Of a DNA stretch of 64,000 nt, positions 15,868 to 57,989 are shown piece by piece. The DNA lies in contig JALONL010000003.1 of assembly GCA_025454955.1 (NCBI GenBank), positions 271,426 through 335,425 on the forward strand, written 5' to 3'. The notes beneath the pieces were generated by a model. That model ran no database searches. It was not told the DNA's origin and worked only from the letters and a program-made list of their open reading frames with translations. Both the position numbers and the translations under genes were made by a program. This stretch comes from Bacteroidia bacterium. GTDB taxonomy: Bacteria > Bacteroidota > Bacteroidia > Palsa-965. The number at the start of each line of letters is the position of its first letter. Positions within the stretch are counted from its first letter, which is position 1.

Positions 15868-16086
15868 ATTTTTTTGATGGATGTGTGGTGTGAAAAACAG
15901 GCACAAAGATAACCGTTTTTATGCCTCAAACAGTTTACAGGGTTTATCGCCTTTTTGTACTATTTATTATCGAAAATCAAGGGCCAACATTCCACACTTT
16001 TAGATAAAATCAGGCTGGCGGCATTTGTCTCGTCGGTTAGATTGTATAGTTTAGACTTTTACTCACCTACAAATTCCTCATTTCAC

Positions 16087-16431: not shown

Positions 16432-16448
16432 TACGTTCTGATAAACAG

Positions 16449-16484
16449 AAAGAGGTTTCCCGTGTGCGGGAAACCTCTTTTTTG
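16449..16484 (+). terminator. Rho-independent terminator
   Basis: agaggtttcccg-tgtg-cgggaaacctct followed by TTTTTT. Confidence 0.75.
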
Positions 16485-16499
16485 CATTGTTGCCGTAAA

Positions 16500-17516
16500 T
16501 TATACCTGTGCAGCCGAGTATCGTTTCATGTAATCGCAGGCGGTGTCCACCATTTCGCTGGAGCCGGCAAAGAACGGGGTGCGTTGGTGCAGTGTTTTGG
16601 GTTCGATTTCGAGAATGCGCTGGAAACCATCAGTGGCTTTGCCTCCGGCCTGTTCGATAATAAAGGCCAGCGGGCTGCACTCATAAAGCAGGCGGAGTTT
16701 GCCTTTGGGCGAGGAGGCGGTGGTGGGATAAATGTAAATGCCGCCGGTAATGAGGTTGCGGTGAATATCGGCCACGGCCGAGCCAATGTAGCGCGAAGAG
16801 TAGGGGCGTTTGGTGGCTTTGTCTTCTTCCTGGCAATACTTGATGTATTTTTTCACGCCATCGGGAAAATGTACGTAGTTGCCTTCGTTTATCGAATAGC
16901 TTTTTCCGTTGGAGGGCGTTTTCATGTTCGGATGCGAAAGGCAGAACTCGCCGATGGACGGATCGAGGGTAAATCCGTTTACGCCTTTGCCGGTGGTATA
17001 AACCAGCATGGTAGATGAGCCGTAAATGATATAACCTGCAGCCACCTGTTCGGTGCCGCGCTGCTGAAAATCTTCGTGTGTGGCAGGGCCGGTGAGCGAC
17101 ACACGGCGGTAAATGGAGAAAATGGTGCCCACCGACACGTTTACATCAATATTGGAAGAACCGTCGAGCGGATCCATTGCCACCACGTATTTCGCATTGC
17201 GCGATTGAGGGGTGTCGATGGGGATAATGTCTTCGTTTTCTTCCGAAGCAATTCCGCAGCATTCGCCACCCACGCTGAGCGCGGCAATAAACTGCTCGTT
17301 GGCAAACACATCGAGCTTTTTTACCGATTCGCCCTGCACATTGGTTTCGCCCACTTCGCCCAAAATATCGGCCAGTCCGGCTTTGTTTACTTCGCGGTGT
17401 ACAATTTTGGCGGCTATGCCAATATCGCGCAGCAGGCGCGAGAGTTCGCCTTTGGCGTAGGGAAAATCGTTTTGTTTCTCAATAATGAATTGTCCGAGGG
17501 TCTTTACTTTGCTCAT
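16500..17516 (-). CDS. fbp: Fructose-1,6-bisphosphatase, class 1
   Basis: 338 aa. N-terminus [29 protein letters not shown] and overall FBPase class I pattern. Confidence 0.9.
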
Positions 17517-34510: not shown

Positions 34511-35863
34511 CTAAATTTTTGCCAAAATGGCCTGTTCCACCTCGTCGGAGTCCCAGCGTTGTTCCAGATCGGGGAACCGGGACATTACTTCCTGCATAAT
34601 GGCTTCCTGCCGCTGGCCTTCGCGCAGGGCGGTGGAGTAGCGTATGTGCGGGCTGTAGGTGACCATGGAATACAGCGGAATCCATTTATCGGGGTATTTG
34701 GCACTGAAACGGGCTTCGATTTTCTTTTGGAGCAGGAATTTGGGGTCGGCGGTTTTGTCGCGCATTTCTATGAAATTGGCTAAGGCCAGGTCGGCCACGG
34801 CATCGCCATCGGGTTTGCGCAGGTGCTGGTATTCGGCCAGTATGTCGGGCCAGTTTTCGGCGTGTTTGTCGATGAGTTCGTTTAATACCACGCAGTCTTC
34901 GAAGCCGCAGTTCATGCCTTGTCCGTAAAACGGCACTATGGCGTGGGCAGCATCGCCAATGAGTGCGAGGCGGTCGGCAAAAGTCCAGGGATAGCATTTC
35001 ACCGTAACCAGCGACGAAGTGGGATTGGCGAAATAATCGTCGAGCAGGGTAGGCATTAGCGGCACGGCATCGGGGAAAACGCGGTCGAAAAATGCCTTTA
35101 CATCGTCGCGTGTTTTCAGTGCGGCAAACGACTCCTCGCCTTCAAACGGGAAAAACAGCGTGCAGGTAAAACTGCCGTCGGGATTGGGCAGCGCAATCAT
35201 CATATAATTTTTGCGCGGCCAGATGTGCAGGGCATTTTTCTCGAGTAAAAATTCGCCGTTTGGCCCGGCCGGAATGTTCAGCTCTTTGTAGCCGTGCTCA
35301 ATGTAAAACTGCCGGTATTCGAAACGGTCGTTGTGCAGCATCATGCTCAGCCGCGCCGCCGAAAAAGCACCGTCTGAGCCGAAAATAAGGTCGGAGGTAT
35401 GATGCGTTTCGGCCTGTGTATCGCCGTGGCGGAAAATGCTTTCGCCGTTTTTCAAATCAACTTTTTCGCAGGCCTGCTCGAAGTGCATGGTTACATTGGG
35501 CTGTGCCTCGGCCAGATCCATGAGCCGCATATTAATGCCGCCGCGCGATACCGACCAGATGGCCTGCCCGTCTTTGCCATACTGCTGAAACACCTGCGAG
35601 CCGTCAACGTGGTGAATCTGCCGCCCGTACATCGGTATCCCGATTTTACGTATTTCATCGGCAATGCCCACGCCTTCGAGTCCGCGCCAGCCGCGGTCGC
35701 TGAGGGCAAGGTTAATGGAGCGGCCGGCGTAAGCACCGCCTTTGCGCATATCGGCGCGGCGTTCGAATACATCAACTTTGTAGCCGCGCTTGGCGAGGTA
35801 AATGGATAGGAGTGAGCCTACAAGGCCCGCTCCGATAACGGTGGCTGATTTAGAAGTACTCAT
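34511..35863 (-). CDS. kmo: FAD-dependent aromatic monooxygenase, likely kynurenine 3-monooxygenase
   Basis: N-terminal FAD-binding motif VIGAGLVGSLLSIYLAKRG, DG and GD(A)AH motifs, and a length of about 450 aa. The call is supported by the nearby kynureninase gene. Confidence 0.7.
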   Translation of the reverse strand: MSTSKSATVIGAGLVGSLLSIYLAKRGYKVDVFERRADMRKGGAYAGRSINLALSDRGWRGLEGVGIADEIRKIGIPMYGRQIHHVDGSQVFQQYGKDGQAIWSVSRGGINMRLMDLAEAQPNVTMHFEQACEKVDLKNGESIFRHGDTQAETHHTSDLIFGSDGAFSAARLSMMLHNDRFEYRQFYIEHGYKELNIPAGPNGEFLLEKNALHIWPRKNYMMIALPNPDGSFTCTLFFPFEGEESFAALKTRDDVKAFFDRVFPDAVPLMPTLLDDYFANPTSSLVTVKCYPWTFADRLALIGDAAHAIVPFYGQGMNCGFEDCVVLNELIDKHAENWPDILAEYQHLRKPDGDAVADLALANFIEMRDKTADPKFLLQKKIEARFSAKYPDKWIPLYSMVTYSPHIRYSTALREGQRQEAIMQEVMSRFPDLEQRWDSDEVEQAILAKI

Positions 35864-36462
35864 TTAAGCAAAGATTCATTTAACACCTCCACCAGTTTAT
35901 GTACAGTGGTGTAAGGGCATTTTAGTGGATTTATGGGTTTATTGCGAAGTTCAAGTTGTTTGGCGTGCCGTATCGCTGCTCGTTGGCGTAGAAGCAAAGA
36001 GCGGTACATATCTTCCGATGATTTTGAATATTTGTAGCCAAGTAAATGGTTTAATTTGCTGATGTAATCTTTACGCCCCAAACCTGTTTCGAGCAAATGA
36101 AAGTGAAGATAATACCAAAGCTCAAACGATTCATTGGAATAGGCCAGATTAATGCCATGCTGCTCAGCCATTTTGTGTGCCAACGCCACAGCCGGGGCTG
36201 GAAATGAGTCGCGGTCAAGTACACACCAAACTTCATTGAAATGTATCTGCGCGCTTCTGTATTTTTCTCGCTGGGCAATGGTGTATTGAATCAATGAAAC
36301 CGTATTCATTCCGGTTCCCTCAATAATTGTCCGCGGCACCCTGAATCCTTTAAAGTAATTCGGTTCCGTTTTTCCACCCTCACAAACAATCAAAAAAGAA
36401 TTTCGGATTTCTTTTTTCGAAATTGAACGTTCAAAACGATTCTCTTTTGATCCCATTGGCAT
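35860..36462 (-). CDS. RloB-like protein (AbiLii-like TOPRIM-type partner)
   Basis: Hallmark RloB-family motifs: LIVCEGGKTEPNYF, WCVLDRDSF (DxD) and AYSNESFELW. It overlaps the upstream ATPase region end-to-start (stop at 36466, start at 36462). The pair is AT-rich. Confidence 0.7.
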   Translation of the reverse strand: MPMGSKENRFERSISKKEIRNSFLIVCEGGKTEPNYFKGFRVPRTIIEGTGMNTVSLIQYTIAQREKYRSAQIHFNEVWCVLDRDSFPAPAVALAHKMAEQHGINLAYSNESFELWYYLHFHLLETGLGRKDYISKLNHLLGYKYSKSSEDMYRSLLLRQRAAIRHAKQLELRNKPINPLKCPYTTVHKLVEVLNESLLK

Positions 36463-36465
36463 CCG

Positions 36466-37803
36466 TTAGTTCATTATGGTGGATGAAAATGCAGAACTAA
36501 AGGGAACACCACCTAAAAGACCGTCAAGATAGGCTTTGCGAATATCCTTGTCGTGCTTTAGTTTGAAATCAGCCACAGAAAAAAGCCTGCTTTCGCCAAA
36601 TTCGGTTTTTTCGGTTAACCATATTTCATCTCGTCTGAACAGGTGTGTGCTCATTTGCATCACATCATGTGTGGTGGCAATAAGTTGCCCCTGGGCAAAA
36701 TCAGAATGGTTAAGAAAGTATTCAAAAAATTGACGCACAAGTTTCGGATGGAGGCTACGGTCAATTTCATCAATCACACACACACCGCCTTTCATAAGAC
36801 TGAAAAGCAACGGAATAAGATCCATCATGCGTTGTGTGCCATCCGACTCTTCCGAAATCTCAAAGAAAATATCTTTGTTTTCCCTTGTTTTATGTATGGT
36901 GGTTAATTTATAGGCTTTGATTTTGCCTTTTTCCATCTCAAAAATATAGCGCAAACCACTTGATGAAGGAACGATGGATATCTGATTTTCTTCAAAGGAA
37001 TGAACTATATCTTCAATTACAATTGACGGCAAATCGGGTATTTTCTCAATATCTGTTTCTGTGCATTCAATGCCTGATATGCCGGTGTCAAAGCCACGTA
37101 AAAAAGCAGAGAACCGTTCTTTAAAATCAATATTATTCTTAATATGAAATTCCAGCAACCCGAATTTTGATTCAGGAAAAACAAGTGTAAGCTGGTCGTC
37201 GAACCAGTTATAGACAGATTGAAAAAACTCGTCGTTGTTTTCGGCAAGCTTGCGGAGCAACAGTTGTTCGGGACGTGTGGCATCCTGCGCAAACTGATAA
37301 AATGCGGCCGTTTTACTGCCAATTTTCGTAATTCCCGGATTGTAGGTTACATCAACATCGCCCTTAACTGATGTGGTGCGTAAATAAATATTTTTCTCTG
37401 TTGTTTTTTTCTGTTCGGTAAGCCATTCTTTACGAATTCTGTAGCGCGTAAACTCAAATCCGTATGTGAAAATCCGGTCACCAATTTTGATATCAAATTC
37501 AAAACGGGTAGGCTTCTTCAGCATTTCGGCATCCAGCCTGAAAGGTGTGTATGGCAGGGGTTTTCCCGGAGCAAAGGACCCGGTAAGCATTAACTTTGCC
37601 ACCTGCATGGCTTTAATCAGATTCGATTTTCCCGAAGCATTTGCCCCGTAAATTACCGCTGTCCGCAATACATCAATGGAAAAGCGGGAATCGTTTCCCT
37701 TAACCACATGTTTGTTATGGATTGCCTCTCGCGAAGCAACCATATTTAAAACCTGTTCCTTTTTAAAGGAAAGGAAATTCGACACAGCGAAACGAATCAA
37801 CAT
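36466..37803 (-). CDS. AAA-family ATPase (AAA_21-like; RloA or AbiLi-like)
   Basis: Walker A IYGANASGKSNLIKAM; Walker B VCVIDEIDRSLHP; H-loop-like IATTHD. Confidence 0.8.
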   Translation of the reverse strand: MLIRFAVSNFLSFKKEQVLNMVASREAIHNKHVVKGNDSRFSIDVLRTAVIYGANASGKSNLIKAMQVAKLMLTGSFAPGKPLPYTPFRLDAEMLKKPTRFEFDIKIGDRIFTYGFEFTRYRIRKEWLTEQKKTTEKNIYLRTTSVKGDVDVTYNPGITKIGSKTAAFYQFAQDATRPEQLLLRKLAENNDEFFQSVYNWFDDQLTLVFPESKFGLLEFHIKNNIDFKERFSAFLRGFDTGISGIECTETDIEKIPDLPSIVIEDIVHSFEENQISIVPSSSGLRYIFEMEKGKIKAYKLTTIHKTRENKDIFFEISEESDGTQRMMDLIPLLFSLMKGGVCVIDEIDRSLHPKLVRQFFEYFLNHSDFAQGQLIATTHDVMQMSTHLFRRDEIWLTEKTEFGESRLFSVADFKLKHDKDIRKAYLDGLLGGVPFSSAFSSTIMN

Positions 37804-37852
37804 TCCTTCAATTTTCTACAAATCTAACGATTTTTTCACCGAAACTGCAAAT

Positions 37853-39163
37853 TTATCTCTCCAAAGCCCCATTTAATACACTTCCAAACCGCCACACATC
37901 CTCAAACGAGTTATACAGCGGCACCGGCGCAGTACGTATTACATTGGGCTCGCGCCAGTCGGCAATTACGCCTTTGGCGGTGAGTGCGTCAAAGAGTTTT
38001 CGTCCGTAGCCGTGTGCTACAATGCTTAGCTGGCATCCGCGTTCGGCTTTGTTTCGCGGGGTGATTATTTCGAGGCAGTTGCCGTGTGCGGCGCTCACCG
38101 TGTCGATGATAAATTCGAGGTAGCCGGTGAGTTTTTCGCTTTTGGCGCAGAGTGCGGGCATTCCGGCGCGGGCAAAAATTTCGAGCGAGGCTTTGTGTGC
38201 GGCCATCGAAAGCACGGGGGCATTGCTCAGTTGCCAGCCTTCGGCACCGGGAATGGGCACAAAGCCTTTTTCCATTTTAAACCGTACGGTTTTGTCGTGG
38301 CCCCACCAGCCCGCCAGCCTGGGCAGGTTGCTGTGGGCGTGGCGTTCGTGTACAAATGCACCGGCCACGCTGCCGGGGCCGCTGTTGAGGTATTTGTAGC
38401 TGCACCAGGCGGCAAAGTCCACATTCCATTCGTGCAGTTTAAGCTGTACGTTGCCTGCGGCGTGCGCAAGATCCCAGCCGGCAAAAGCACCCACGCGGTG
38501 TGCGGCGGCGGTAATGGCAGCCATGTCGAAAAGCTGACCGCTGTAATAGTTTACACCGCCTATCATTACCAGCGCCAGCGAGTCACCGGCATTTTCGATG
38601 GCGGCAATTACGTCTTCGGTACGTATGGTATGTTCGCCCGCCCGCGGGGCAACTTCAATTATGGCTTCTTCGGGCTCGTATCCGTGCCATTTTACCTGTG
38701 TTTCGAGGGCGTATTGGTCTGACGGAAAAGCCTTTTGCTCGCACACAATTTTGTAGCGCAGTCCGCGCGGGCGGTAAAACGAGGCCATCAGGAAGTGCAG
38801 GTTCGAAGTGAGCTGGTTCATCACCACCACCTCAATGGGTTTTGCGCCCACCAAAGCAGCTGCATTTTCGGTAAGCAATTCGTGGTACGAAAACCAGGGA
38901 TTGCGGGCCTCAAAATGGCCTTCCACACCAAATTTTGCCCAGTCGTCGAGTTCCTGCAAAATGGCATCGCGCGTAGTACGCGGCTGCAGCCCGAGCGAAT
39001 TGCCGGTAAAATAAACCGTATCGCGTCCGTCGTGCTGCGGAATGAGAAATTGCTGACGGAACTCTTTCAGCGGATCGGCCGCATCCAATTGCTGCGCAAA
39101 GGCAAGCGTGTTTTCGTAATTCATAGCTAAAGTAAGAGGCGTAAAAATACGCATGTCTGGCAC
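37853..39163 (-). CDS. kynU: Kynureninase
   Basis: The PLP-lysine region [11 protein letters not shown] and the N-terminus ...[23 protein letters not shown] are characteristic of KynU. Confidence 0.9.
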
Positions 39164-39254: not shown

Positions 39255-39923
39255 TTAATTCACTACCTGGAAATTCTTGTTCACTGCGCGGTATTTTATT
39301 GTCATTACCCCGCCCGCATCGGGTTTTTGCACAGGTGTGGTAATGGTGAATCTGTCCATTAATCCCACATAAGCACCCAGCGCAGTATTTTGCAGCGAAC
39401 TGGCTTGTACTTTAATGGAATCTTCGCCGGGAGTGGTTTCGGTGTAGGAATTAAAAGCCACGCCTAGGTAAATGGTTTCGCCCGCGCTCACCGTAGTGCC
39501 CACCCAGGGGAAACGTGTATCCTGCGATTTTGAAATGTCAATCACCGAAGGAGTGGCAGGAAAATCAACCGCTTCGAGCGTGTCTGTGGTGTTGGTATAA
39601 AGAGTACCGTCGCCGTTTTTATATACGAATGTTCCTGCAGGTACAAGGCCGGTGTAAATTTTTTCATACACTCCGGTAGTGGCATTGTGCAGGAGAAGAT
39701 CGCCGTTGAATTTCACTTCCGATGGCGCCGAAAGTTCGAGCGAAGTGCCGGTGGCATTTCCAAAAGTGAAATAGGCCTTGGCATAAGTTTTATTCTCATT
39801 CTTATCGTAAAACAATTCGTAATGAGTATAAATGCGGGTTTGATCCACACTGCTCGATTCTTCCTGCTGGCAGGAACCCATCAGCATCATTACGGCTAAA
39901 ATGCCGGGCAATAACTTTTTCAT
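39255..39923 (-). CDS. Hypothetical lipoprotein
   Basis: Signal peptide with lipobox MKKLLPGILAVMMLMGSCQQ. No family was recognised. Confidence 0.5.
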   Translation of the reverse strand: MKKLLPGILAVMMLMGSCQQEESSSVDQTRIYTHYELFYDKNENKTYAKAYFTFGNATGTSLELSAPSEVKFNGDLLLHNATTGVYEKIYTGLVPAGTFVYKNGDGTLYTNTTDTLEAVDFPATPSVIDISKSQDTRFPWVGTTVSAGETIYLGVAFNSYTETTPGEDSIKVQASSLQNTALGAYVGLMDRFTITTPVQKPDAGGVMTIKYRAVNKNFQVVN

Positions 39924-40147: not shown

Positions 40148-41446
40148 ATGAATACAACGCGCTCACAGGAACTTTTCGAAACTGCAAAAAAATATTTCCC
40201 GGGCGGAGTAAATTCTCCCGTTCGTGCTTTTCGTTCGGTTGGCGGTACTCCGCTTTTTATCCGTAAAGGAAAAGGATCGCGCATCTGGGATGCCGACGGG
40301 AATGAGTTTATTGATTACTGCTGTTCGTGGGGGCCGCTTATTTTGGGTCATGCCAATGATGGCGTGGTAAAAGCCGTTCAGGAAACCGTGGCCGAAGGAA
40401 GTTCTTTTGGTGCTCCCACCGAACTCGAAAACCAACTGGCCGATCTTATTCTCTCTTTCAATTCCTACATTGAAAAAATCCGTTTTGTAAGTTCCGGTAC
40501 CGAAGCCGTAATGAGCGCCATTCGCCTTGCGCGTGGCTACACGGGCCGCACCAAAATACTCAAGTTCGAAGGCTGCTATCATGGTCACAGCGATTCGCTG
40601 CTGGTAAAAGCCGGCTCGGGGCTGGTTACGTTTGGCAATACTTCATCGGCCGGTGTGCCCGAGGCGTTTGTGAATGAAACCATTGTGGTGCCGCTAAACA
40701 ATACAAATGCCGTGCGCGAGGCTTTTGCGCAGTTCGGAAACGAAATTGCGGCAGTAATTATTGAACCTGTTCCGGCCAATAACGGATTGCTGCTTCAGGA
40801 AAAAAGCTACCTCGAATTTCTGCGCGTGATTACCAAAGAACATGGCAGCCTTCTCATTTTCGACGAAGTAATTTCGGGCTTTCGCGTATGTTTTTGCGGT
40901 GCCGCCGGTTACTACTCCATACAGCCCGATATTATTACTTACGGTAAAATTATCGGTGGTGGTCTGCCTGTGGGAGCCTACGGTGCAAGCCGCGAAATTA
41001 TGAGCCGCATTTCGCCCGAAGGCGATGTGTATCAGGCCGGCACGCTCTCCGGCAATCCGGTGGCCATGAGTGCCGGACTGGCACAGCTTTCGGCCTGTCT
41101 GGCTCCGGGGTTTTATCAGGAGCAGGAAGCAAAAACACAGCGGCTTGTAAACGGTATCCGTGCGCACATTGCCGCCAAAGGTTATACCGCAAAGCTCTGG
41201 CACATTGGTTCCATTTTCTGGATTGCGTTTACTAATCTGGAGTATATCCGCACTGCCGAAGAAATAGACCCGCAAAGCATGACCATTTTCCGCAAAATGT
41301 ACCATGCGCTGCTTGAACGCGGTATTTACCTCGGGCCGTCGGGCTATGAGGTAGGCTTTGTATCAGCCGCCCACAGCAACGAAGATATTGACCGCACCAT
41401 TACCGCCTTTGCCCAGGCATTGGATGAGGCTTTTGTCACCACATAA
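40148..41446 (+). CDS. hemL: Glutamate-1-semialdehyde 2,1-aminomutase
   Basis: YFPGGVNSPVRAF near the N-terminus and the class III aminotransferase motif FDEVISGFR. The ORF opens at 40046, but the canonical start is MNTTRSQELFETAKKYFPGG at 40148. Confidence 0.95.
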   Translation: MNTTRSQELFETAKKYFPGGVNSPVRAFRSVGGTPLFIRKGKGSRIWDADGNEFIDYCCSWGPLILGHANDGVVKAVQETVAEGSSFGAPTELENQLADLILSFNSYIEKIRFVSSGTEAVMSAIRLARGYTGRTKILKFEGCYHGHSDSLLVKAGSGLVTFGNTSSAGVPEAFVNETIVVPLNNTNAVREAFAQFGNEIAAVIIEPVPANNGLLLQEKSYLEFLRVITKEHGSLLIFDEVISGFRVCFCGAAGYYSIQPDIITYGKIIGGGLPVGAYGASREIMSRISPEGDVYQAGTLSGNPVAMSAGLAQLSACLAPGFYQEQEAKTQRLVNGIRAHIAAKGYTAKLWHIGSIFWIAFTNLEYIRTAEEIDPQSMTIFRKMYHALLERGIYLGPSGYEVGFVSAAHSNEDIDRTITAFAQALDEAFVTT

Positions 41447-42407
41447 ATTTGTAAGTCAGATACACGGCTGCCCACACCAGCAGCAAAGTGCCATCGGTTA
41501 AGAGCGAGAAATAATACTCGTGTCTCCGCGGTGTGGCTTTGCTTACCACAATGGCGGTGGGAATACATGCTGCACCAAAAGCAAGCAGGCCCCAGGTAAA
41601 TTGGTTTTGCGGAAATGCAAAATACACGCAGGCCGCCGCAATGAGCAAAAGCACAATTACCGCCACCCTCAGCGAACGTTTAATGCCCAGCAACACCGGC
41701 AGCGATTTTACGGTAGCACCGTCAATCAGGAAATCGCGTACATCAAACGGTACGGTAATGGCAAAGGCAAAAGCCGTATAAATAGAAAAAATAAGTGCCG
41801 AATAGTTTTTCAACGGCATATAATCAAGTTGTTCAGGCCATCCTGTAAAACACTCTAAGTCCTGTAAACCGCACAGCGGCCACATGCCGCACACTACGGC
41901 CCACACCAGCGCAATGAGAAAGATTTTTACACCCGGCAAATCGCGCAAACGTTTCCACCGCCCGCGGCCGGGAATCAATGGCAACGCATAAGCCACCGCA
42001 ATAAAACTGGCCGAAATGCACCAGCCGTAAAATTCCCTCGTGGCATCAGTAATTTCAAAGCGATAGCCGCCCGCCCCGGCATCGTGTACAAAAGCCCGCG
42101 AAATAAAAATTATACCGCCTGCAATCAATGCAGCCAGCATGAGCACAGTCATGAGCAGGCGGTTTTGCTTTATCCATTCATGCCGCACGGTATGCTGCCG
42201 TTCTATTTTGCTGAGTTTCCACGAGGCATATACGCGCTGCACATTGTAGAGGCAGAATGTGGCACAAAAACTAAACAGGGCCAGCCAGCTTTCTACACGA
42301 AATCCCATTATCATACACGTCACATCGCTCCATGCCGCAGCACAGAGCGACACATGAAAATTGCCGTACACATAGAAAGCTAATGCGGCTTTCAGTAAAC
42401 GGCCCAT
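41436..42407 (-). CDS. Hypothetical polytopic membrane protein
   Basis: Eight or more hydrophobic segments. The ORF extends to 42461, but a start at the M at 42407 (MGRLLKAALAFYVYG) avoids overlap with the upstream gene. Its 3' end overlaps the 3' end of hemL by 11 bp (convergent). Confidence 0.45.
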   Translation of the reverse strand: MGRLLKAALAFYVYGNFHVSLCAAAWSDVTCMIMGFRVESWLALFSFCATFCLYNVQRVYASWKLSKIERQHTVRHEWIKQNRLLMTVLMLAALIAGGIIFISRAFVHDAGAGGYRFEITDATREFYGWCISASFIAVAYALPLIPGRGRWKRLRDLPGVKIFLIALVWAVVCGMWPLCGLQDLECFTGWPEQLDYMPLKNYSALIFSIYTAFAFAITVPFDVRDFLIDGATVKSLPVLLGIKRSLRVAVIVLLLIAAACVYFAFPQNQFTWGLLAFGAACIPTAIVVSKATPRRHEYYFSLLTDGTLLLVWAAVYLTYKFMW

Positions 42408-42417
42408 GCGTATGCTT

Positions 42418-43044
42418 TTAGTTATTGTTGATAATGGAAGAGGCAATGAATCCCGCCGCAAAGCCTATGCCTCCGGCCGTGAGCGTACGCAATGCCCTGC
42501 GCTGCCGGGCGTACTTTTCGTAACCAAGCAGGTAGGTGTCGTATTTCAGATTCTGAGGATGTGAAACAGTGCCGGGACGAATTGGAATACGGAATACCAC
42601 CGAAAACCCGCTGTACAAAAACGGAGGCCCGAGTGCCCACATTTGTCGCGAATACCCGCAGGCTGCGCCAAGCACAAATGCCCCGGCTGTCCAGCCCGGG
42701 CAACGATAATAACGCCGCGCATCACGTTCGCCCTGAAGAAAATAACGGACTTCCTGAGGTGTATAATAATTCCCAAACAACGTATCCTGCTTATAAAAAA
42801 TTACTTCCTGCCCGCTTTGTCCGTATTTCACTGAAAACACAAGCTCCTGATCGATAAAGTCGGCTTTGAAATTGCCCTTTTTCGGCACAAGCATTCTCAC
42901 CTGTTGCGATGCAGTGTCTTTCACATAACCCGTTACAATTTTACCACTCATCAGGTAAACCGTATCCATAGGTTGGGCAGCTTGCTGCGCATAAGCAACA
43001 GCACCAGCCAGTAGTGCAAAGAGAAAACAGCAGAAATAACGCAT
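42418..43044 (-). CDS. Hypothetical secreted protein
   Basis: The likely start is MRYFCCFLFALLAGAVAYAQQ (a signal peptide) at 43044. The ORF track extends it to 43119. Confidence 0.4.
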   Translation of the reverse strand: MRYFCCFLFALLAGAVAYAQQAAQPMDTVYLMSGKIVTGYVKDTASQQVRMLVPKKGNFKADFIDQELVFSVKYGQSGQEVIFYKQDTLFGNYYTPQEVRYFLQGERDARRYYRCPGWTAGAFVLGAACGYSRQMWALGPPFLYSGFSVVFRIPIRPGTVSHPQNLKYDTYLLGYEKYARQRRALRTLTAGGIGFAAGFIASSIINNN

Positions 43045-43789
43045 GTGGTTTTTTGAATTGTCTTCCCAAAGATAATTGAAATAGCTTGTAACAGACTTTC
43101 CTTCTGATCCAAGTTCCATTCATTGGTATTTCAGGGGCTGTCTGTCAATTTTGTGCTTAGCGTCTTGAAAACAGGGCGATAAGTGCAGAAAGCATAGAAA
43201 TAGTTTTGTGATCCGATAATCAACTGAATGGCCCGGGAAGTGCCAGTCTTTTCAAAAAAATGAAACAAACACGTAGAGAGAAGCAGAAATGTAAACGTTA
43301 ATGATTCTGTTCTGGTTTACCGGCTTCATTTGTTTATTTTCTCAAATCAGTCGCCTGAAAAATATTTTAAACAATAAAAATAATTCTATTTAATATATTT
43401 TGAAATATCAAAAAAACAATGGTCTTGTCAAGAAAACAAGGCGGAGATGTTAAGGGAAAGAAAAATGCATTTAAGCATGGTGGAAAACACTGATATTTAT
43501 ATGCAAATGATGCTTTTTCAAAGACAGATTAATGAAAAATACCGATGAATGATATGTGGATCAAGTGTTTTACCATTTATTCAATAATAATCACTTTTTC
43601 TTCAACTATCAGATATTCAGTTATTTAACGCGATTTAGCAGCTAATCCATTGCTTTGAAACTCAATATCTCCTTTCTTTGCAGCTAACAAACCGCCTTTA
43701 TAAATCCCTACATGCCTCTCCCGAACAATTACAAAGAGGATTAGTTGTTATCAAATATTTGATGACTGCTTATCTCATTTGGGTATTCA

Positions 43790-46700
43790 GTGGTGGTAAA
43801 AGAAACATCAAATTTTTACGATATGCTCCACTTTACGAAGCAAATGTTGACTGCGTCATTGCTTTTGCTGGGTAATGTTTTGTTTGCCCAGAATTTCAGC
43901 AGTGAGCCCCAGGCCAGATTTGAAGAAAACAAAGGCCAGTGGGATCAGGCAGTACTTTACCGGACAGAGTTGAATAATGGTTTTATCTACCACGAACGTG
44001 GCGGATATACCGTGCATTTCAGCAACCTGTCTGATGCTTACGAGCAATTTCACCATAGTGGTGATGATGCGGCTGATGTACAGATCAAAAACGACGTAAT
44101 GAAAGTGTCGTTTGTAGGCGCGTCATCGCTCACACAAACCCGTGCAGCTGGCCGTAACCCTGTGTCGCGCTCTTACTTTACCAACAACAAGCTGATTAAT
44201 CAGACTTCAGATGTGGGTACGTTTAACGAGCTCAGCTACGAGCAGTTGTATCCGGGCATATCGCTTACCTATCGCTCGTACCGCGATATTATTAAGTACG
44301 ATTATCTTATTGCACCCGGTGCCGATGCTTCGTTAATACGGCTTGAGTACAAAGGAGCCACTAAGCAGGAAATAGACAGCGAAGGAAACCTCATTACTTA
44401 CAACTCGCTGGGCACAATTAAGGAATATGCACCTGTGGCATATCAGGAAATGCCCACAGGCCGTGTTGATGTGGCTGTGCAGTTCGTGATTCAGAACGGG
44501 CAGGTTTCGTATTATTTCCCCAATGGGTATGATACCAATTACCCGCTGGTTATCGACCCCTTTCTTGCTGCTTCTACCTATTCGGGCTCGGTGGCCGATA
44601 ACTGGGGCTTTACTGCCTGTCCCGGACCTAATGGTGTGATGTGTATGGCCGGTGTGGCTTTCGCAGCTGGCTATCCCACCACAGTGGGAGCTTTCCAAAC
44701 CACATTTGCCGGTGCCACCGATGTAAGCATCAGTATTTTCAGTGCCAACGGTCAGAACCTTCTCGCTTCAACCTACCTCGGAGGTACTGGTAATGAATAT
44801 CCTCACTCCATCATTGCAGCAGCCAACGGCGATCTTTATGTACTTGGCCGCACCGAATCAAACAACTTCCCTACCACAGTAGGTTGTTTCGACAACTCAT
44901 TCAACGGTGGTACCACCGATATTTTCGTTGCCCGTTTAAACAGTTCACTTACCACACTTATTGCTTCTACTTATGTGGGTGGTAATGGTCTCGATGGTAC
45001 CAACGTGGTAAACAGTTTCACTGGTACCACACAAACCCGCTTCTCTTATGCCGATAACGGCCGCGGCCAGATCCGTCTCGATGGTTCGGGCAATGTGTGC
45101 GTGGCTTCCTGTACACAGTCTTCAGACTTTCCCACCACAGCAGGCGCGTTTGATATTACGCTGAGCGGCACGCAGGATGGGGTGGTGTTTAAAATGAATA
45201 ACACACTCACTACACAGGTGTACAGCACACTTGTAGGTGGAGCAGCCTTCGATGCCTGTTTCAGTTTACAGATAGGTACAGGTAATACATTATTCGTAGC
45301 CGGTCTTACAAACAGTGCCGACTTTCCGACTACGGCCGGAACCCTGCATACCACGGCCAGAGGCGGTGTGGATGGTTTCGTGTTTCAGATTAACTCCACC
45401 GGTACTGCGTTAACTGCTTCTACCTATCTCGGCACCACAAACAAAGACGGTGTATTTAACGTGGATGTAAATACTTCGGGTGTGTATGTGTATGGATTAA
45501 GTACCGGCGGTACATATCCTGTAACTCCCGGAACGTACTCCAATGCCAACAGCAGCCAGTTCATTCACGGTCTTGATCTTACGCTTACCACCACACTGTT
45601 TTCTACGGTTTTTGGAAACGGCGTTACTCCCAACCTTTCGCCCACCGCTTTTGAAGTTGATACCTGTCTTAAAATTTATGCGGCAGGCTGGGGGCGTTGT
45701 TTCGATGGTGGTACAAACATTGGCATGCCCACCACAGTAGGAGCATTTCAGACCACCACCGATAATTGCGACTTTTATTTTATAGTGCTTGAGCCTAATG
45801 CGGCATCGCTCCGCTATGGTACTTATTTTGGCCAGAATGGCGGAACTGCCGACCACGTAGATGGTGGCACCAGTTTGTTCAGTAACAACAGTACTGAATC
45901 AGGCGTGGTGTATCAGGCTGTTTGCGCCTCGTGCGGTGCAGCTACCAATGGCTTCCCGGTAACGCCAAGTGCATATTCGCCGGTTGACGGAAGCACGAAC
46001 TGTAACAATGCCGTTTTCAAATTCGATCTTGAAACATACTCGCCCGGTGCTGCGGCCATTGCATCCTCAGGCAATGGTTGTGTAGGTGCGCCCATTGCAT
46101 TTACCAACAACAGTACCAACGCCAACACTTACCTCTGGGACTTTGGCGATGCCAGCACCAGCACACTTACCAATCCTTCGCATACCTACGCTGCGGCGGG
46201 TACCTATACGGTAACGCTGGTTGCCTACAACAGCACAACCTGTATTCTTTCCGATACGGCCACCACTGTGGTAACCATTACACAGCCTTCGGTAAGCGTA
46301 TCGGTTACTTCGGGTACAAACCCTACCTGTAACGGAAGTTCGGTAACACTTACCGCTGCCGGTGCAGATACCTATACCTGGAATCCGGGGGCGCTTACCG
46401 GCACATCTGTAGTTGTATCGCCTGCCACGACCACTACCTATACGGTTATTGGCACCACCACTGCAACCGGTTGTACCGATACGGCTACCATAACAATTAC
46501 AGTAAACCCGATTCCGGCCACACCCACACCCGGCAGCAACAGCCCGGTTTGTACAGGAAATACCCTGAACCTCACCACAGCCGCAGTGGCAGGTGCCACG
46601 TATAGCTGGACCGGTCCGGGCGGCTTCACCTCGTCGCTCCAAAACCCCACGCGCCCCACAGCCACACTGGCTATGGCAGGCACATACAGTGTAACGGTTA

Positions 46701-49700
46701 CAGTGGCAGGATGTACCTCGGCTGCAGGAACTACGGCAGTAACCATAAACAGTACTCCCGCCACACCCACGGCCGGCAGTAACAGTCCGGTTTGTACAGG
46801 TAATACTATTAACCTGAGTACACCAACTGTAGCCGGAGCTACTTATTCATGGACAGGCCCCTCGGCTTTCTCGTCTTCATTACAGAACCCCACCCGTCCT
46901 TCGGCCACAGTGGCTATGGCCGGTACGTACAGTGTAACTGTTACGGTGGGCGGATGTACTTCAGCAGCAGGAACCACAGCAGTAGTGGTAAACGCTACAC
47001 CCGCTGCACCTACAGCCAGCAGCAACAGCCCGGTTTGCACAGGCAACACCATTAACCTGAGCACACCCACCGTGGCCGGTGCCACTTATGCCTGGACAGG
47101 CCCCTCGGCCTTCTCCTCTTCATTGCAGAATCCTACCCGTCCGTCGGCCACGGTGGCCATGGCAGGCACATACAGCGTTACTGTAACCTTTGGCGGATGT
47201 ACTTCGGCCGCCGGAACCACTGCGGTAACCATAAACACCACCCCCGCCACACCCACCGCCGGCAGCAACAGCCCGGTTTGTACGGGTAATACACTTAACC
47301 TTACCACTCCGCTTGTAGCCGGTGCCACATACTCCTGGACCGGCCCCAACAGCTTCATCTCCTCAGTACAAAACCCGAGCATTACCGGTGTAACTGCCGC
47401 TGCGGCGGGTACTTACAGCGTAACGGTAACAGTGGGCGGCTGTACTTCGGCAGCAGGCACTGTGGCAGTGGTGGTAAACACTACTCCCGCCACACCCACC
47501 GCCAGCAGCAACAGCCCGGTTTGTACAGGCAACACCATTAACCTGAGTACACCCACTGTAGCTGGTGCTACTTATGCCTGGACAGGCCCCGCGGCTTTCT
47601 CGTCTTCATTGCAGAATCCCACACGTCCTACAGCCACACTGGCTATGGCCGGCACATACAGCGTAACAGTTACCGTAAGCGGCTGTACCTCTGCCGCCGG
47701 AACTACAGCCGTAGTGGTAAATTCTACACCCGCCACACCCACCGCATCCAGCAACTCGCCGGTGTGTTCGGGCAATACGCTTAACCTTTCCACTCCGCTT
47801 GTGGCTGGCGCCACCTATTCCTGGACAGGTCCCAACAGTTTCACGTCATCATTACAAAACCCCACCATTACCGGTGTAACCACCGCCGCTACCGGAACTT
47901 ACAGTGTAACCATCACAGTAGGCGGTTGTACCTCGGCTGCCGGAACTACCGCAGTAACTATTAATCCCACTCCGGCCACACCCGCACCCACCAGCAACTC
48001 GCCCGTGTGCGTTGGCAACACCATTAACCTTAGCACTGCCACAGTAGCCGGTGCCTCTTATAGCTGGACAGGCCCCGCCGCATTCACCTCGGCTTTGCAA
48101 AATCCCACCCGTGCTTCGGCCACACTGGCCATGGCAGGGACTTACAGCGTAACAGTAACCGTAGGTGGTTGTACTTCGGCCGCCGGAACCACGGTGGTAA
48201 ACGTAGTATCGCTCCCGGCCACACCAACCGCATCCAGCAACTCGCCGGTATGTACAGGCAATACACTTAACCTGAGCACACCCACAGTGGCAGGCGCTAC
48301 TTACGCCTGGACGGGCCCCAACAGTTTCACTTCCTCTGTACAAAACCCAAGCATCACCGGCATAACAACCGCTGCCGCCGGTACCTACAGTGTGACAGTA
48401 ACAGTAGGCGGATGTACTTCGGCCGCCGGAACCACAGTGGTAACCGTAAACACCACACCTGCTGCGCCCACCGCATCCAGCAATTCGCCGGTATGCTCAG
48501 GTAATACGCTTAACCTAAGTACACCTGCTGTGGCCAGCGCCACCTACTCCTGGACAGGTCCCAACAGCTTCACGTCCTCATTACAAAACCCGACAATTAC
48601 CGGTGTAACCACCGCCGCTACCGGCACATACAGTGTAACGGTAACTGTAAGCGGTTGTACCTCGGCTGCCGGAACCACAGCAGTAACCATCAATCCCACC
48701 CCGGCCACACCCGCACCCACCAGCAACTCGCCCGTGTGCCTTGGCAACACCATTAACCTGAGCACAGCCACAGTAGCCGGTGCCACTTATAGCTGGACTG
48801 GCCCTGCTTCGTTTACCTCCACACTGCAAAACCCGACCCGTCCTTCGGCCACACTGGCTATGGCGGGAACTTACAGTGTAACTGTAACCGTAGGTGGTTG
48901 TACTTCGGCCGCCGGAACCACGGTGGTAAACGTAGTATCGCCCCCGGCCACACCCACTGCTTCAAGCAACTCGCCGGTATGTACAGGCAACACACTTAAC
49001 CTGAGCACACCCACAGTGGCAGGCGCTACTTACGCCTGGACAGGCCCCAACAGCTTTACCTCAGCTCTGCAAAACCCAAGCATCACCGGTATAACTGCCG
49101 CTGCTGCCGGTACTTATAGTGTAACGGTAACCGTAGGCGGATGTACTTCGGCCGCCGGAACCACTGTGGTAACCGTAAACAACACACCCGCCACGCCCAC
49201 GGCATCCAGCAACTCGCCGGTATGTTCGGGCAATACACTTAACCTTTCTACTCCCGCAGTGGTAGGTGCCACCTATTCATGGACAGGCCCCAACAGCTTT
49301 ACCTCCACACTGCAGAACCCCACTATTACCGGTGTAACCACCGCCGCTACCGGCACATACAGTGTAACGGTAACCGTAAATGGTTGTACCTCGGCTGCCG
49401 GAACTACCGCGGTAATTATCAATGCAACTCCGGCTGCGCCTACCGCATCCAGCAACACACCGGTATGTTCGGGCAACACCATTAACCTGAGCACACCTAC
49501 AGTTGCAGGCGCTACCTATAGCTGGACGGGTCCCGCTTCGTTCACATCATCACTGCAAAACCCAACCCGTCCTTCGGCTACCGTGGCTATGGCCGGTACT
49601 TACAGTGTAACAGTAACTGTGGCAGGTTGTACATCGGGCATTGGAACCACTGCGGTTGTGGTAAATCCCACACCAGCCACACCCACTGCATCCAGCAACT

Positions 49701-52700
49701 CGCCTGTATGTACGGGCAATACGCTCAACCTTACCACTCCGGCAGTAGTTGGTGCCACCTATTCATGGACAGGCCCCAACAGTTTCTCTTCTTCATTACA
49801 AAATCCAAGTGTAACCAACGTAACTACAGCCGATGCCGGAACATACAGTGTAACGGTAACCGTAAACGGCTGTACTTCGGTTGCCGGAACCACTGCGGTA
49901 ATCATCAATACCACACCGCTTGCTCCGGCTATTTCGAGCAATACACCTGTGTGTGCCACCACGCCGCTTAACCTTACTGCGGCTACTGTAGCCGGTGCAA
50001 CTTATGCCTGGTCTGGCCCCAACAGTTTCACCTCCACACTGCAAAACCCCACCATTGCCAGTGCTCCGCTTGCCGCAAACGGTACCTATTCGCTGGTAAT
50101 TACGGTGAATGGATGTCCCTCTACTCAAACCACCACCGTGGTATCTGTTGTTACCTGTCCCGATACGGATGGTGATGGTATTTTCGATCCGTATGATCCG
50201 GATGATGATAACGACGGTATCCTCGATGTGACAGAAGGAACCGGTGATGTTGACGGAGACGGAATTCCCAACTCGCTTGATCTTGATTCGGATAACGACG
50301 GTATTACCGACGTGGCCGAAAACGGCGGTGCCGATTCTGACGGAAACGGTATCATTGACAACTGCACCGACGTGGACAGTGATGGTCTCTGCGGTGTAGT
50401 CGATCCATCAACCGGCGGTACCCCGCTTGCCACATTGAACAATGACGGCGACGGTTTACCCAACTTCCTCGATCTCGATGCGGATAACGATGGTATTGTA
50501 GATATTATCGAAGTTGGCGGCACCGATGCAAACGGCGATGGCCAGGTGGACGGAATTGCCGACAGCGACAGCGATGGTTTACGCGACGCAGTGGATCCGA
50601 ACCAGAGTGGCATACCAATATTTACCACCGGAGCCGATGCCAACACCGATGGCCGTCCCGACAGCTATCCGACCGACAATGCCGACAACAACGGCCTGCC
50701 CAACTTCCTCGATATTGATGCCGATAACGACGGTATAGTGGATAATATCGAAGGCCAGTCATCGGCCGGATATACACCGCCTACCGGCACCGACAGCGAT
50801 GGCGATGGAATTGATAATGCCTACGATAACTTTGCCGGATTTGGCGGCGCGGGTGTAACACCGGTAAATACCGATGCAGCCACCGACGGTGCCGACTACA
50901 TTGATACCGATGCCGACAACGACGGCGACCTTGATGCGCTCGAAGGCTGGGATACCGATAACAACGGTGTGGCCAACACATTGCCTGCCGGTACCGATGC
51001 CGATGGCGACGGTCTCGACGATAACTACGACACCAACGACGCGCTTTGGAATCCAGGCAACGGACAAACACCCACCTCATTCCCGAACCTTGATAACACC
51101 GCCACACCCCAGCTCGACTGGCGCGAAGCGCTTGACAATGATGGCGATGGTGTAACCGACATCAACGATCCGGATGATGACAACGACGGTGTAACCGACA
51201 TTGCAGAAGGAACCGGTGATGCCGACGGCGACGGAATTCCGAACAACCTTGATCTCGACAGTGATAACGACGGAATTACCGACGTAATTGAAAACGGTCT
51301 CCTTGATGCCAACGGCGATGGCATTGTGGATGGTTTCACCGACGTGGACAACGACGGTTTGAACGATGCACAGGATCCAAGCCAGAGCGGAACACCGGTA
51401 ACACCCGGCGACAGAGACAACGACGGTGTACCCAACTTCCTTGATCTCGACAGCGATAACGACGGTATTACCGACGTAGCCGAAAACGGCGGTGCTGATG
51501 CCGACGGCGACGGACGCATTGACGGATTTACAGACACCAACGGCAATGGCCTTGCCGATAACGTGGATCCCACCGCAGGCGGCACACCGCTGCCCACACT
51601 GAACAGCGATGGTGACTCAGCCCCCAATTACCTTGACCTCGACAGCGATAATGATGGCATAGTGGACATCATTGAAGTAGGCGGCACCGATGCCAATGGC
51701 GATGGCCAGGTGGACGGTACTGCCGATGCTGACGGCGATGGTTTGCGCGATACGGTTGACCCCACACAAAGCGGCACACCAATATTTACCACCGGTGCCG
51801 ATACCAACAACGACGGCCGCCCGAACAGCTACCCGAACGATAACGCAGACAGCAACGGCCTGCCCAACTTCCTCGATATTGATGCCGACAACGATGGTAT
51901 TGCAGATAACATCGAAGGCCAGTCAACAGCAGGCTACACACCGCCCACCGGCAACGATACCGATGGCGATGGCATTGACGATGCCTATGATACCACTGCA
52001 GGCTTTGGCGGCGCAGGTGTAACACCGGTAAATACCGACTCTGCCTCTGACGGTGCCGACTACATTGATACCGATGCCGACAACGACGCCATAAGCGATG
52101 CCATTGAAGGCTGGGACACCAACGGCGACAACGTAGCCGACACCACCCCTTCGGGCAACGATGCCGACGGCGATGGTCTTGACGACAACTACGACAACAA
52201 CGACGCACTCTGGAACCCGACCAACGGCCAGACACCCACATCGTTCCCGAACCTCGACAATCCTTCAACCACGCAGCTCGACTGGCGTGAAATTGAAGAC
52301 TTCGACAACGACGGCGTGGCCAACGCATTCGATCCGGATGATGACAACGACGGCATTCTCGACGTAACCGAAGGAACTGCTGACACCGACGGCGATGGCA
52401 ACCCTGATGCCACCGACCTCGACTCTGACAACGACGGTATTACCGATGTGGCTGAAAACGGCGGTGCTGATGCTGACGGCGACGGATTCATCGACAACTT
52501 TACCGATGCTGACAACGACGGTCTGGCCGATGCAGTTGACCCCTCGCAGGGCGGCACTCCGCTGGCTACACTCGATAACGATGGCGACGGTCGCCCGAAT
52601 TACATTGACCTCGACAGCGACAACGACGGCATTGTAGATATTATCGAAGCCGGCGGAACAGATGCCGACGGTAACGGTATAGTGGATAATGCCACCGACG

Positions 52701-55700
52701 CAGACAACGACGGTCTGTACGACGTGGTTGATCCCACACAAAGCGGCACACCGATATTTACCACCGGAGCCGACACCAACAACGACGGCCGCCCGGACAG
52801 CTATCCGAACGACAATACCGACAACAACGGCCTGCCCAACTTCCTCGATATCGACAGCGATAACGATGGTATTGTGGACAACATCGAAGGCCAGTCGACA
52901 CCGGGCTATACACCGCCCACTGGTCTCGACAGCGACAACGACGGTATTGACAATGCTTACGACAACTTCGCCGGCTTTGGCGGTGGTGGTGTAACGCCTG
53001 TAAACACAGACGGTACGCCCGACGGTCCCGATTACACGGACACCGACACCGACAACGACGGCATGAACGATGCCCTCGAAGGCTGGGACACCAACAACGA
53101 CGGAAACGCCGACACCACACCTTCGGGCAACGATGCCGACGGCGATGGTCTCGACGACAACTATGACAGCAACGATGCCCTCTGGAATCCGACCAACGGC
53201 CAGACACCCACATCGTTCCCGAACCTCGACAATGCTTCCACCCCACAGCTCGACTGGCGCGAAACCGACGACTCGGATAACGACGGCGTACTGAACAACG
53301 TGGATCCTGACGACGACAACGACGGCATCCTTGACATTGTGGAAGGCACCGCCGATACCGACGGCGACGGAATTCCGAACTACCTCGATCTCGACAGCGA
53401 CAACGATGGTATTCCTGATGTAACCGAAGCTGGTGGCTCTGATCCTGACGGCGACGGCATTATCGGCAACGGTCCGTTTACCGATACCGATAACGATGGT
53501 CTTGGCGATCTTGTGGATCCCAGCACCGGCGGCACTCCGCTGCCTTACCCCGACAGCGACGGCGACGGCATTCCGAACACACAAGACCTCGACAGCGATA
53601 ACGACGGCATTACTGATGTAACCGAAGCAGGCGGCACCGATGCCAACGGCGACGGCATCATTGACGGCTTTACTGATACCGACAACGATGGTCTGGCCGA
53701 TGTGGTGGATCCGAACAACGGCGGAACCCCGCTGCCCACGCCCGACAGCGACGGAGACGGCAACGACGATTACGTAGATCTCGACAGCGACAACGACGGC
53801 ATAACCGATGTAACCGAAGCAGGCGGCACCGATGCCAACGGCGACGGTATCATTGACGGCTTTGCCGACACCGACAACGATGGTCTGAGCGACAACGTGG
53901 ACACCAACAACGGTGGCACTGCATTGCCCACACCCGACAGCGATGGCGACGGCAACGACGATTACGTGGATCTCGACAGCGACAACGACGGCATTCCTGA
54001 TGTGGTAGAAGCAGGCGGCACCGATGCCAACGGCGATGGCGTAATTGACGGCTTTGCCGATACCGACAACGATGGTTTGAGCGATAACGTGGACACCAAC
54101 AACGGTGGCACCGCACTGCCAAACCCCGACAGCGATGGCGATGGACTTAACGATGTAATCGACCTCGACAGCGACAACGACGGTATTACCGATGTAACCG
54201 AAGCTGGCGGCACCGATGCCAACGGTGACGGCATCATTGATGGCTTTGCCGATACCGACAACGACGGTCTGAGCGATAACGTGGACACCAACAACGGTGG
54301 CACCGCATTGCCCACACCCGACAGCGATGGCGACGGCAACGACGATTACGTGGATCTCGACAGCGATAACGACGGTATTGCCGATGTAGTGGAAGCAGGC
54401 GGCACCGACGCCAACGGCGATGGTATAATTGACGGCTTTGCCGATACCGACAACGATGGTTTGAGCGATAACGTGGACACCAACAATGGCGGCACCGCAT
54501 TGCTCAACCCCGATACCGACGGCGACGGATTGAACAACGTAGTTGATCTCGACAGCGACAACGACGGCATTACCGATGTAGCCGAAGCAGGTGGCACCGA
54601 CGCCAACGGCGACGGCATCATTGACGGCTTTGCCGATACCGACAACGATGGTCTGAGCGATAACGTAGACACCAACAACGGCGGAACAGCACTGCCTGTG
54701 CCTGACACCGACGGCGATGGTGTGGACAATTACCTCGACCTCGACAGCGACAACGATGGCATTACCGATGTAATTGAGAACGGCGGTGCCGACAGCAACG
54801 GCGATGGTATCATTGACGGATTTGCCGACACCAACAACAACGGTCTTGCCGATGATGCCGATCCGGCAAACGGAGGAACTCCGTTTGGCGAAGCCGATCA
54901 GGATGGTGATAACATTCCGAATTACCTTGATCTCGACAGCGATAATGATGGAATAGTGGACATTGTGGAAACCGGCGGAACCGACGCCAACGGCGACGGT
55001 CAGGTGGATGCATTTGCCGATACCAACGGAAACGGTTTGGCCGACAGCGTGGATCCTGCCACCTCCGGCACACCCAATACCACTACCGGCAACGATACCA
55101 ACAGCGATGGCCGTCCGGACAGCTACCCGAACGACAATGCAGATAACAGTGGTCGTCCCGACTTCCTGGATATTGATGCCGATAACGATGGTATTGTAGA
55201 TAACATCGAAGCGCAGTCAACCACCGGTTATGTGGCGCCCACGGGCAACGATACCGACGGCGACGGCATTGATGATGCGTATGACACTACACCGGGCTTT
55301 GGTGGCGCAGGCGTAACACCTGTGAACACCGACGGTGCCGATACACCCGACTACATTGATACCGACACCGACAACGACGGCTTCTCGGATCTGGTAGAAG
55401 GCAACGACTTCAACAACAACAACCAGCCCGATGTACTGCCCAGCGGTAACGATACGGATGGCGACGGACTGGATGATTCCTACGACAACGTAAACACCAC
55501 CGGCACCGCCAACGTAACCAACAACGATGCTCCCGCCACCGGAACCACATTCCCCGACGTGGATGTAGTGGGCGGTGAACTCGACTGGCGCGATCCGGTG
55601 GATACCGATGGTGATGGTATTTCCAACAACATTGACATTGACGATGACAACGATGGAATTACCGACGTAACCGAAGCAGCCACCGCCTCAAACAACGGCG

Positions 55701-57973: not shown

Positions 57974-57989
57974 TAGGAGGGAAGAAGCT

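Follow-up and report, generated by a model that had tools for sequence, protein, structure and literature searches.

How a pair of AT-rich genes came to lie between two genes of one metabolic pathway, and what the pair does there, is the question raised by a 64,000-nt stretch of DNA from a Bacteroidia bacterium (GenBank assembly GCA_025454955.1, contig JALONL010000003.1, positions 271,426 to 335,425; hereafter the window). In the window abiLi, encoding an ATPase, and abiLii, encoding an RloB-family protein, separate kynU, coding for kynureninase, from kmo, coding for kynurenine 3-monooxygenase. The two genes probably form an AbiL module that was inserted once, in an ancestor, together with a promoter of its own, was vertically inherited thereafter, and encodes a nuclease which, restrained by the ATPase, would serve to abort infection.

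The gene pair and its products

Both genes are read from the minus strand, the ATPase gene first, and are 3 bp (cgg) apart. The initial annotation had delimited the two reading frames and the spacing exactly, and all the protein motifs it quoted are found where expected (Table 1). The identity of the flanks proposed there also holds, as kynU matches the TIGR01814 model, and the kmo product resembles solved kynurenine 3-monooxygenases (phmmer E 1.7e-108 with 6lkd, 2.2e-88 with 5fn0). Its assignment of the products to the RloB/AbiLii family and to AbiLi-type AAA_21 ATPases was tested with the Pfam RloB, Pfam AAA_21 and PADLOC AbiL profiles, all of which gave positive matches.

AbiLi scores 129.5 bits against Pfam AAA_21 (cut-off 27; E 3.7e-37), and matches AAA_15 as well. 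The best of its 80 PADLOC hits is the AbiLi model PDLC02335 (277 bits, E 3.9e-83), the next-best model being AriA (E 4.9e-36). The GANASGKSN, ESDGTQR, IDEIDRSLHP and ATTHD motifs are invariant, or nearly so, in six orthologues and in 51 homologues. An AlphaFold2 model of the protein has a mean predicted local distance difference test (pLDDT) score of 88.4; among solved folds it comes closest to PtuA (Septu/retron) and to the heads of Rad50 and SMC (Foldseek E 3e-10 to 1e-8). Featuring the full set of ABC motifs and an ABC/SMC-head fold, AbiLi fits the AAA_21/AAA_15 (OLD-like/Rad50-like) ABC ATPases. The length assigned to the protein differs by source, being 413 aa at NCBI and 445 aa at JGI (start region 37744-37803). 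The long form is favoured, because its initial 20 residues are kept in all six orthologues.

AbiLii matches Pfam RloB (PF13707) over the entire profile (positions 1-195 of 195), with 142.8 bits (cut-off 31.5; E 1.9e-41), and its sole PADLOC match is the AbiLii model PDLC02337 (E 5.4e-29). RloB is also its only Pfam match, the DUF4435 domain that typifies AriB not being hit. Residues E28, D83 and D85 are invariant across 54 homologues; E28, D83-x-D85, E114 and H120 are identical or nearly so in the six orthologues, and near-invariant in wider alignments. In an AlphaFold2 model built from 54 homologues (pLDDT 92.1) the protein has a three-layer alpha/beta domain, after which the C-terminal part is helical. 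Strand 1 (residues 23-27) is followed by E28, and strand 3 (residues 77-83) ends in D83-R-D85. RloB is a member of the Toprim superfamily bearing E and DxD residues (PMC12065111), and the placement of these residues in the model is the Toprim layout described for RloB in that work. A Foldseek search of the Protein Data Bank (PDB) with the AbiLii model gave no significant match, and the RloB profile, when run against PDB sequences, found no relative. The orthologues align from the third codon (36456), and translation of abiLii may start there instead of at 36462; the NCBI listing has a protein of 198 aa (start region 36456-36462). Existing NCBI labels read 'ATP-binding protein' for AbiLi and 'RloB family protein' for AbiLii, and NCBIfam holds a specific model for neither.

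Site of insertion

The order of kynU and kmo was monitored in 160 loci collected from genomes and metagenomes with a kmo probe. Among the matches listed, no kmo is more than 78% identical to that of the window, and relatives of AbiLi or AbiLii are found in none of the 160 loci. Loci carrying the pair are absent from these matches, and were recovered by searching with the cassette proteins. In 94 of the 160 AbiL-free loci kynU immediately precedes kmo, both genes being on the same strand. The gap between the two genes is 169 nt or less in 75 of the 94 loci, the genes abutting or overlapping in 27; in the other 19 it spans 340-2691 nt, and is filled by unrelated cargo. Since kynU adjoins kmo in so many AbiL-free relatives, the contiguous order is taken as ancestral, and the AbiL pair as an insertion. 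The synteny comparison therefore bears out the earlier suggestion that the pair interrupts genes which are normally contiguous. No direct or inverted repeats, target-site duplications or terminal inverted repeats bracket the pair, and neither a tRNA nor an integrase gene was found nearby.

In these bacteria the kynU-kmo junction seems to have received small cargo repeatedly. Genes found there encode a GNAT acetyltransferase, DUF1905-OmdA and DUF1801-OmdA proteins, a PDDEXK_3 protein, a DEAD-box helicase and membrane proteins, or are large open reading frames (ORFs); gaps bearing cargo occur in L004, L006, L009, L010, L024, L025, L083, L125, L141 and L158. A different AT-rich two-gene cargo (GC 0.35 vs. 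0.57) fills the gap at positions 4310-6000 of L001, a locus from a sister lineage, the kmo of which is 78% identical to that of the window. The first gene encodes a 388-aa AAA_15/AAA_21 ATPase with a weak AbiLi-type match in PADLOC (E 5e-20), the second a 162-aa partner that matches no family, its stop codon abutting the kmo ATG. The L001 genes were considered as a diverged AbiL pair, and rejected as such, the ATPase having no BLASTP similarity to AbiLi, and the partner not being RloB-like by profile comparison. Judged from its sequence, this cargo is independent of the AbiL pair. It may be an undescribed ATPase-partner defence pair.

Age of the insertion

The order kynU-abiLi-abiLii-kmo recurs in five other lineages, represented by the contigs of the closest cassette homologues (L163, L164, L165, L166 and L167). 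The nearest to the window are L163 (AbiLi 89%, AbiLii 80%, kmo 93% identical) and L166 (90, 77 and 91%, respectively). Values are lower in L164 (55, 51 and 75%) and L165 (57, 52 and 74%), and the AbiLii of L167 is 54% identical to that of the window. The next-closest RloB homologue with a context inspected (P0129, contig L168) has unrelated surroundings. Carriers make up one clade in a neighbour-joining tree of kmo plus kynU, in which L004, L001, L003, L007 and L002 are sister lineages devoid of the pair. Likewise, the carrier proteins group together to the exclusion of all others in the trees built for AbiLi (from 56 sequences) and AbiLii (from 59). Most simply, these trees suggest that the pair was acquired once, by the ancestor of the clade, and then passed on vertically.

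The idea that the insertion is recent, put forward in the initial annotation, is not supported. The pair is found at the same site in five diverged lineages, the carriers are monophyletic, and GC is low in all of them. The closest relatives found (L163-L167) carry the pair at this site, and it is absent only outside the clade; on the identical arrangement in the five lineages the recent-insertion reading was rejected.

Within the clade, AbiLi and kmo do not always diverge in parallel. Between L165 and L167, AbiLi is 97% and kmo 91% identical; the figures are 80% and 94%, respectively, for L164 and L165. These mismatches hint at an occasional exchange of cassette alleles between related lineages.

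Composition and selection

Along the pair GC ranges from 0.36 to 0.44, as against 0.51-0.59 in the flanks (0.41 vs. 0.55), and GC at third codon positions (GC3) likewise differs, with values of 0.40-0.41 for the pair and of 0.61-0.66 for its flanks. The AT-richness first noticed by eye is thus confirmed by both measures. It is common to every carrier, GC3 being 0.25-0.41 in the pair and 0.41-0.66 in the flanks, and the pair lying 10-15 GC points below its surroundings. Synonymous divergence (dS) between orthologous cassettes is at or near saturation, ranging from 0.8 to >1.5; between the window and L163, the dS of the cassette is about twice that of the flanks. Because low GC persists despite nearly saturated synonymous sites, the deviant composition is to be seen as a stable property of the cassette, and not as the mark of a recent arrival. 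The cassette has remained compositionally foreign throughout a divergence of host genes of about 25% at the protein level. It provides a natural example that an AT-rich composition and an interrupting position need not mean recent transfer. The lack of amelioration may be due to weak selection on codon usage in genes expressed at low levels, or to exchange with an AT-rich pool of alleles.

Ratios of nonsynonymous to synonymous divergence (dN/dS, Nei-Gojobori) are 0.02-0.05 for abiLi, 0.09-0.17 for abiLii and 0.04-0.07 for kynU and kmo. By this measure, both abiLi and abiLii are under purifying selection. Protein divergence of the cassette is about twice that of the flanks (55% vs. 75% identity). 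The six orthologous cassettes, all under purifying selection, could guide mutagenesis.

Expression signals and possible coupling to kmo

The spacer between kynU and abiLi contains the sequence TTTG-N21-TAGATTTG at 37819-37851, with a -7 box at 37819-37826. We take this pattern to be the Bacteroidetes-type promoter consensus. The full pattern occurs three times in the window against 2.05 occurrences expected by chance, so that its presence alone is not significant. All six carriers have TAnnTTTG in the corresponding spacer, 4-15 nt upstream of the abiLi ATG; of 36 kynU-kmo spacers (20-200 nt) of AbiL-free relatives, only one contains it. Given this distribution, the motif apparently belongs to the cassette, for which it would be a putative promoter of its own; that it is an ancestral kmo promoter, inherited at the site, was rejected on the single occurrence among the 36 AbiL-free spacers. 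A scan for sigma-70 promoters and terminators gave counts not above those in shuffled sequence, and the organism probably uses a promoter type other than the sigma-70 consensus.

At the other end of the cassette, the stop codon of abiLii overlaps the ATG of kmo in the window as in L163, L164, L166 and L167. L165 is the exception, abiLii ending at 9920 and kmo starting at 9937, the called genes being 16 nt apart. A terminator-like site was sought between the two genes, but none was found. The ATGA overlap and the lack of such a site suggest that kmo is co-transcribed, and translationally coupled, with the cassette.

The cassette might even have been permanently incorporated into the kynurenine (de novo nicotinamide adenine dinucleotide, NAD) operon, the promoter and the overlap making kmo expression dependent on it. 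Such an operon capture is a rather doubtful proposition; if true, it would explain both the unusually long vertical retention and the lasting foreign composition. As a further possibility, the expression of the immune pair could be functionally coupled to the synthesis of NAD precursors. A link to NAD-depleting defence systems was also considered, and no evidence for it was found. The conserved promoter motif and the kmo overlap make the locus one in which the wiring of a defence module into a metabolic operon can be put to the test.

Function of the pair

AbiL has been grouped with PARIS and other systems made up by an AAA15/21 ATPase and a Toprim protein (PMC11464382). The PARIS nuclease is caged by its ATPase until a phage protein sets it free, whereupon tRNA is cut (PMC11464382). 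As reported in PMC13064643 from Deng 1999, the AbiL of Lactococcus confers abortive phage resistance, acting after phage transcription. Furthermore, an RloB-like Toprim toxin and the AAA ATPase that neutralises it have been validated as a toxin-antitoxin (TA) pair (PMC10440598, Fig. 6B). Numerous plasmids, among them 3.9-kb ones of E. coli, also bear an ATPase-RloB pair, in keeping with a mobile, self-stabilising module.

A mechanism in which the ATPase restrains a toxic Toprim nuclease is the most likely one, by analogy with PARIS/OLD-type systems and with the validated RloB-type pair. The module would have been inserted once, along with its promoter, between the kynU stop and the kmo start, in the ancestor of a small Bacteroidia clade, and would have been kept functional while inherited vertically. 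AbiLi would work as sensor and antitoxin, binding AbiLii and keeping the nuclease inactive. On detection of a phage-derived cue by AbiLi, AbiLii would be freed or activated, and, as a metal-dependent nuclease, would cut nucleic acid, most likely tRNA or other RNA, possibly DNA. Growth or translation would come to a halt, and infection would be aborted. Transcripts starting at the cassette promoter, and probably others starting upstream of kynU, would continue into kmo.

Several points weigh against this reading. Domain identities and conserved residues are observed in the proteins encoded in the window, whereas the interaction between AbiLi and AbiLii, the trigger and the substrate are carried over from related systems, and the same applies to the defence phenotype in this clade. 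AbiLii and AriB have no detectable sequence similarity (PMC13064643), so that the analogy with PARIS is architectural only. The cassette promoter is a match to a consensus. Lastly, long vertical retention at a fixed site within a metabolic operon is atypical of defence genes.

Other histories and functions can be envisaged. The GC content of the pair (0.41 vs. 0.55 in the flanks), its absence from the 160 relatives found with the kmo probe (among the matches listed) and the occurrence of family members on plasmids are what one would expect of a foreign island which entered the genome lately by horizontal transfer. Yet the identical site is occupied in L163-L167, in which kmo is only 74-93% identical to that of the window, carriers are monophyletic in host-gene and cassette trees alike, the dS of the cassette is at or near saturation, and the search for target-site duplications, terminal inverted repeats, tRNA and integrase genes was negative; a recent transfer is thus most improbable. 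The pair may alternatively be regarded as a domesticated housekeeping unit, involved not in immunity, but in RNA processing, repair, or a regulation tied to kynurenine/NAD metabolism. Vertical inheritance, the location between two genes of the same pathway, translational coupling to kmo, and a purifying selection as strong as that acting on the flanking genes would all suit such a role. It is hard to reconcile with the confinement of the pair to one small clade, in the sister lineages of which kynU either adjoins kmo or is separated from it by unrelated cargo. The cassette proteins have evolved at about double the rate of the flanks, their codon composition is still foreign, and the closest families are all conflict systems. 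A housekeeping function is accordingly regarded as quite unlikely.

Somewhat more plausible, though still unlikely, is a selfish TA addiction module of no defensive benefit, in which loss of the ATPase frees the toxic nuclease, and any deletion must be precise to spare kmo. The validated TA pair of an RloB-like Toprim toxin and an AAA antitoxin (PMC10440598) and the occurrence of the pair on very small plasmids speak for addiction, as do the long retention at a single site, the stop/start overlap and an own promoter feeding kmo. Addiction, on the other hand, gives the toxin gene no protection from inactivating point mutations; the abiLii dN/dS of 0.09-0.17, with the catalytic residues all kept in six lineages, argues for a benefit to the host. 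TA and defence are moreover not exclusive, PARIS being both (PMC13064643).

Relationship to known systems

The pair belongs to the known AbiL and RloB families, all family features that could be examined being found. As in the PADLOC definition of AbiL, genes matching the AbiLi and AbiLii models are adjacent and co-oriented, with the ATPase gene first, and the layout is the same in the five orthologous loci. The prototype, AbiLi/AbiLii of the Lactococcus lactis plasmid pND861 (a PADLOC/DefenseFinder family), similarly has an ATPase gene nearly abutting an RloB-type gene that follows it, and combines an ABC/Rad50-like ATPase with a Toprim-like nuclease (PMC13064643); the likeness was established through the PADLOC models. 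Whereas the lactococcal AbiL is plasmid-borne, the window pair is chromosomal, vertically inherited in a Bacteroidia clade, and sits inside a metabolic operon, sharing a stop/start overlap with the downstream gene. With it, the AbiL family of ABC ATPase plus RloB/Toprim systems gains a chromosomal Bacteroidia clade. The setting is mildly unusual, being an old insertion in a two-gene metabolic unit with long vertical retention, foreign composition, its own promoter motif and an overlap with kmo.

PARIS, in which the ABC ATPase AriA is associated with the DUF4435 Toprim nuclease AriB, also joins an AAA_15/21 ATPase to a separate Toprim-type effector, and is the best-studied guide to how a pair of this kind might function (PMC11464382). 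AbiLi matches the AriA models too, though far less well than the AbiLi model. The effector of the window pair is RloB (PF13707), that of PARIS DUF4435, and no sequence similarity between AbiLii and AriB is reported (PMC13064643); the pair was therefore rejected as a PARIS system.

RloA and RloB, found in type I restriction-modification (R-M) loci of Campylobacter, gave the RloB Pfam family its name, and are likewise an ATPase-paired system (PMC10440598, PMC13064643). Unlike them, the window pair has kynU and kmo as neighbours, and no hsd R-M genes adjoin it among the neighbour genes of the window examined, a reason to reject an R-M-linked RloAB pair. In OLD and in GajA (Gabija) ATPase and Toprim domains are fused in one protein, unlike in the window pair, and the partner of PtuA (Septu/retron) is an HNH nuclease, not an RloB protein. 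The likeness of OLD, GajA and PtuA to the window pair is confined to fold and motifs.

Coordinates and neighbouring genes

Table 1. Positions in the window of the abiLi-abiLii pair, its protein motifs and its flanks
Feature	Coordinates	Strand	Protein residues	Description
kynU (kynureninase)	37853..39163	(-)		Upstream flank of insertion; TIGR01814 E 2.2e-144; Pfam KYNU_C
kynU-abiLi spacer	37804..37852	(-)		Putative cassette promoter; 49 nt, Bacteroidetes-type promoter-like motif
abiLi	36466..37803	(-)		445-aa ABC-type (AAA_21/AAA_15, Rad50/SMC-like) ATPase
AbiLi Walker A, GANASGKSN	37621-37647	(-)	53-61	
AbiLi signature-like motif, ESDGTQR	36829-36849	(-)		
AbiLi Walker B and D-loop, VCVIDEIDRSLHP	36745-36783	(-)	341-353	
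AbiLi H-loop, IATTHD	36664-36681	(-)		
abiLii	35860..36462	(-)		200-aa RloB-family, Toprim-like putative nuclease
AbiLii CEGGKTEPNYF	36352-36384	(-)	27-37	Contains Glu28
AbiLii LDRD	36208-36219	(-)	82-85	Contains D83-x-D85
AbiLii SNESFELW	36115-36138	(-)	109-116	Contains E114
ATGA overlap	35860..35863	(-)		abiLii stop TGA / kmo start ATG, from the sequence
kmo (kynurenine 3-monooxygenase)	34511..35863	(-)		Downstream flank; phmmer 6lkd, 5fn0; Pfam FAD_binding_3

The genes around the pair are kynU, kmo, rplU, rpmA and hemL. A Fic-domain protein gene (4357-5496, minus strand) lies between kmo and rplU in L167, and in no other carrier. In L166, a DUF4286 gene is followed at 15586-16597 by a gene for a large SMC_N/AAA_23/AAA_21 ATPase (650 aa, cut off by the end of the locus), which may be another conflict-system ATPase; the equivalent position in the window is taken by an rRNA adenine dimethylase gene.

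An Rfam scan of the entire 64-kb window gave no matches. Three minus-strand ORFs near the kynurenine genes (39255-39923, 41436-42461 and 42418-43119, of 222, 341 and 233 aa) have no Pfam match, and counterparts of the first two are present in related loci. Further along, at 43790-61207, resides a 4727-aa ORF with DUF7948, PKD, Ig-like and CHU_C (type IX secretion signal) domains. The region upstream of it (43000-43800) is very AT-rich, with a GC content of about 0.30, and a PorP/SprF gene and an OmpA/TPR gene come after the ORF.

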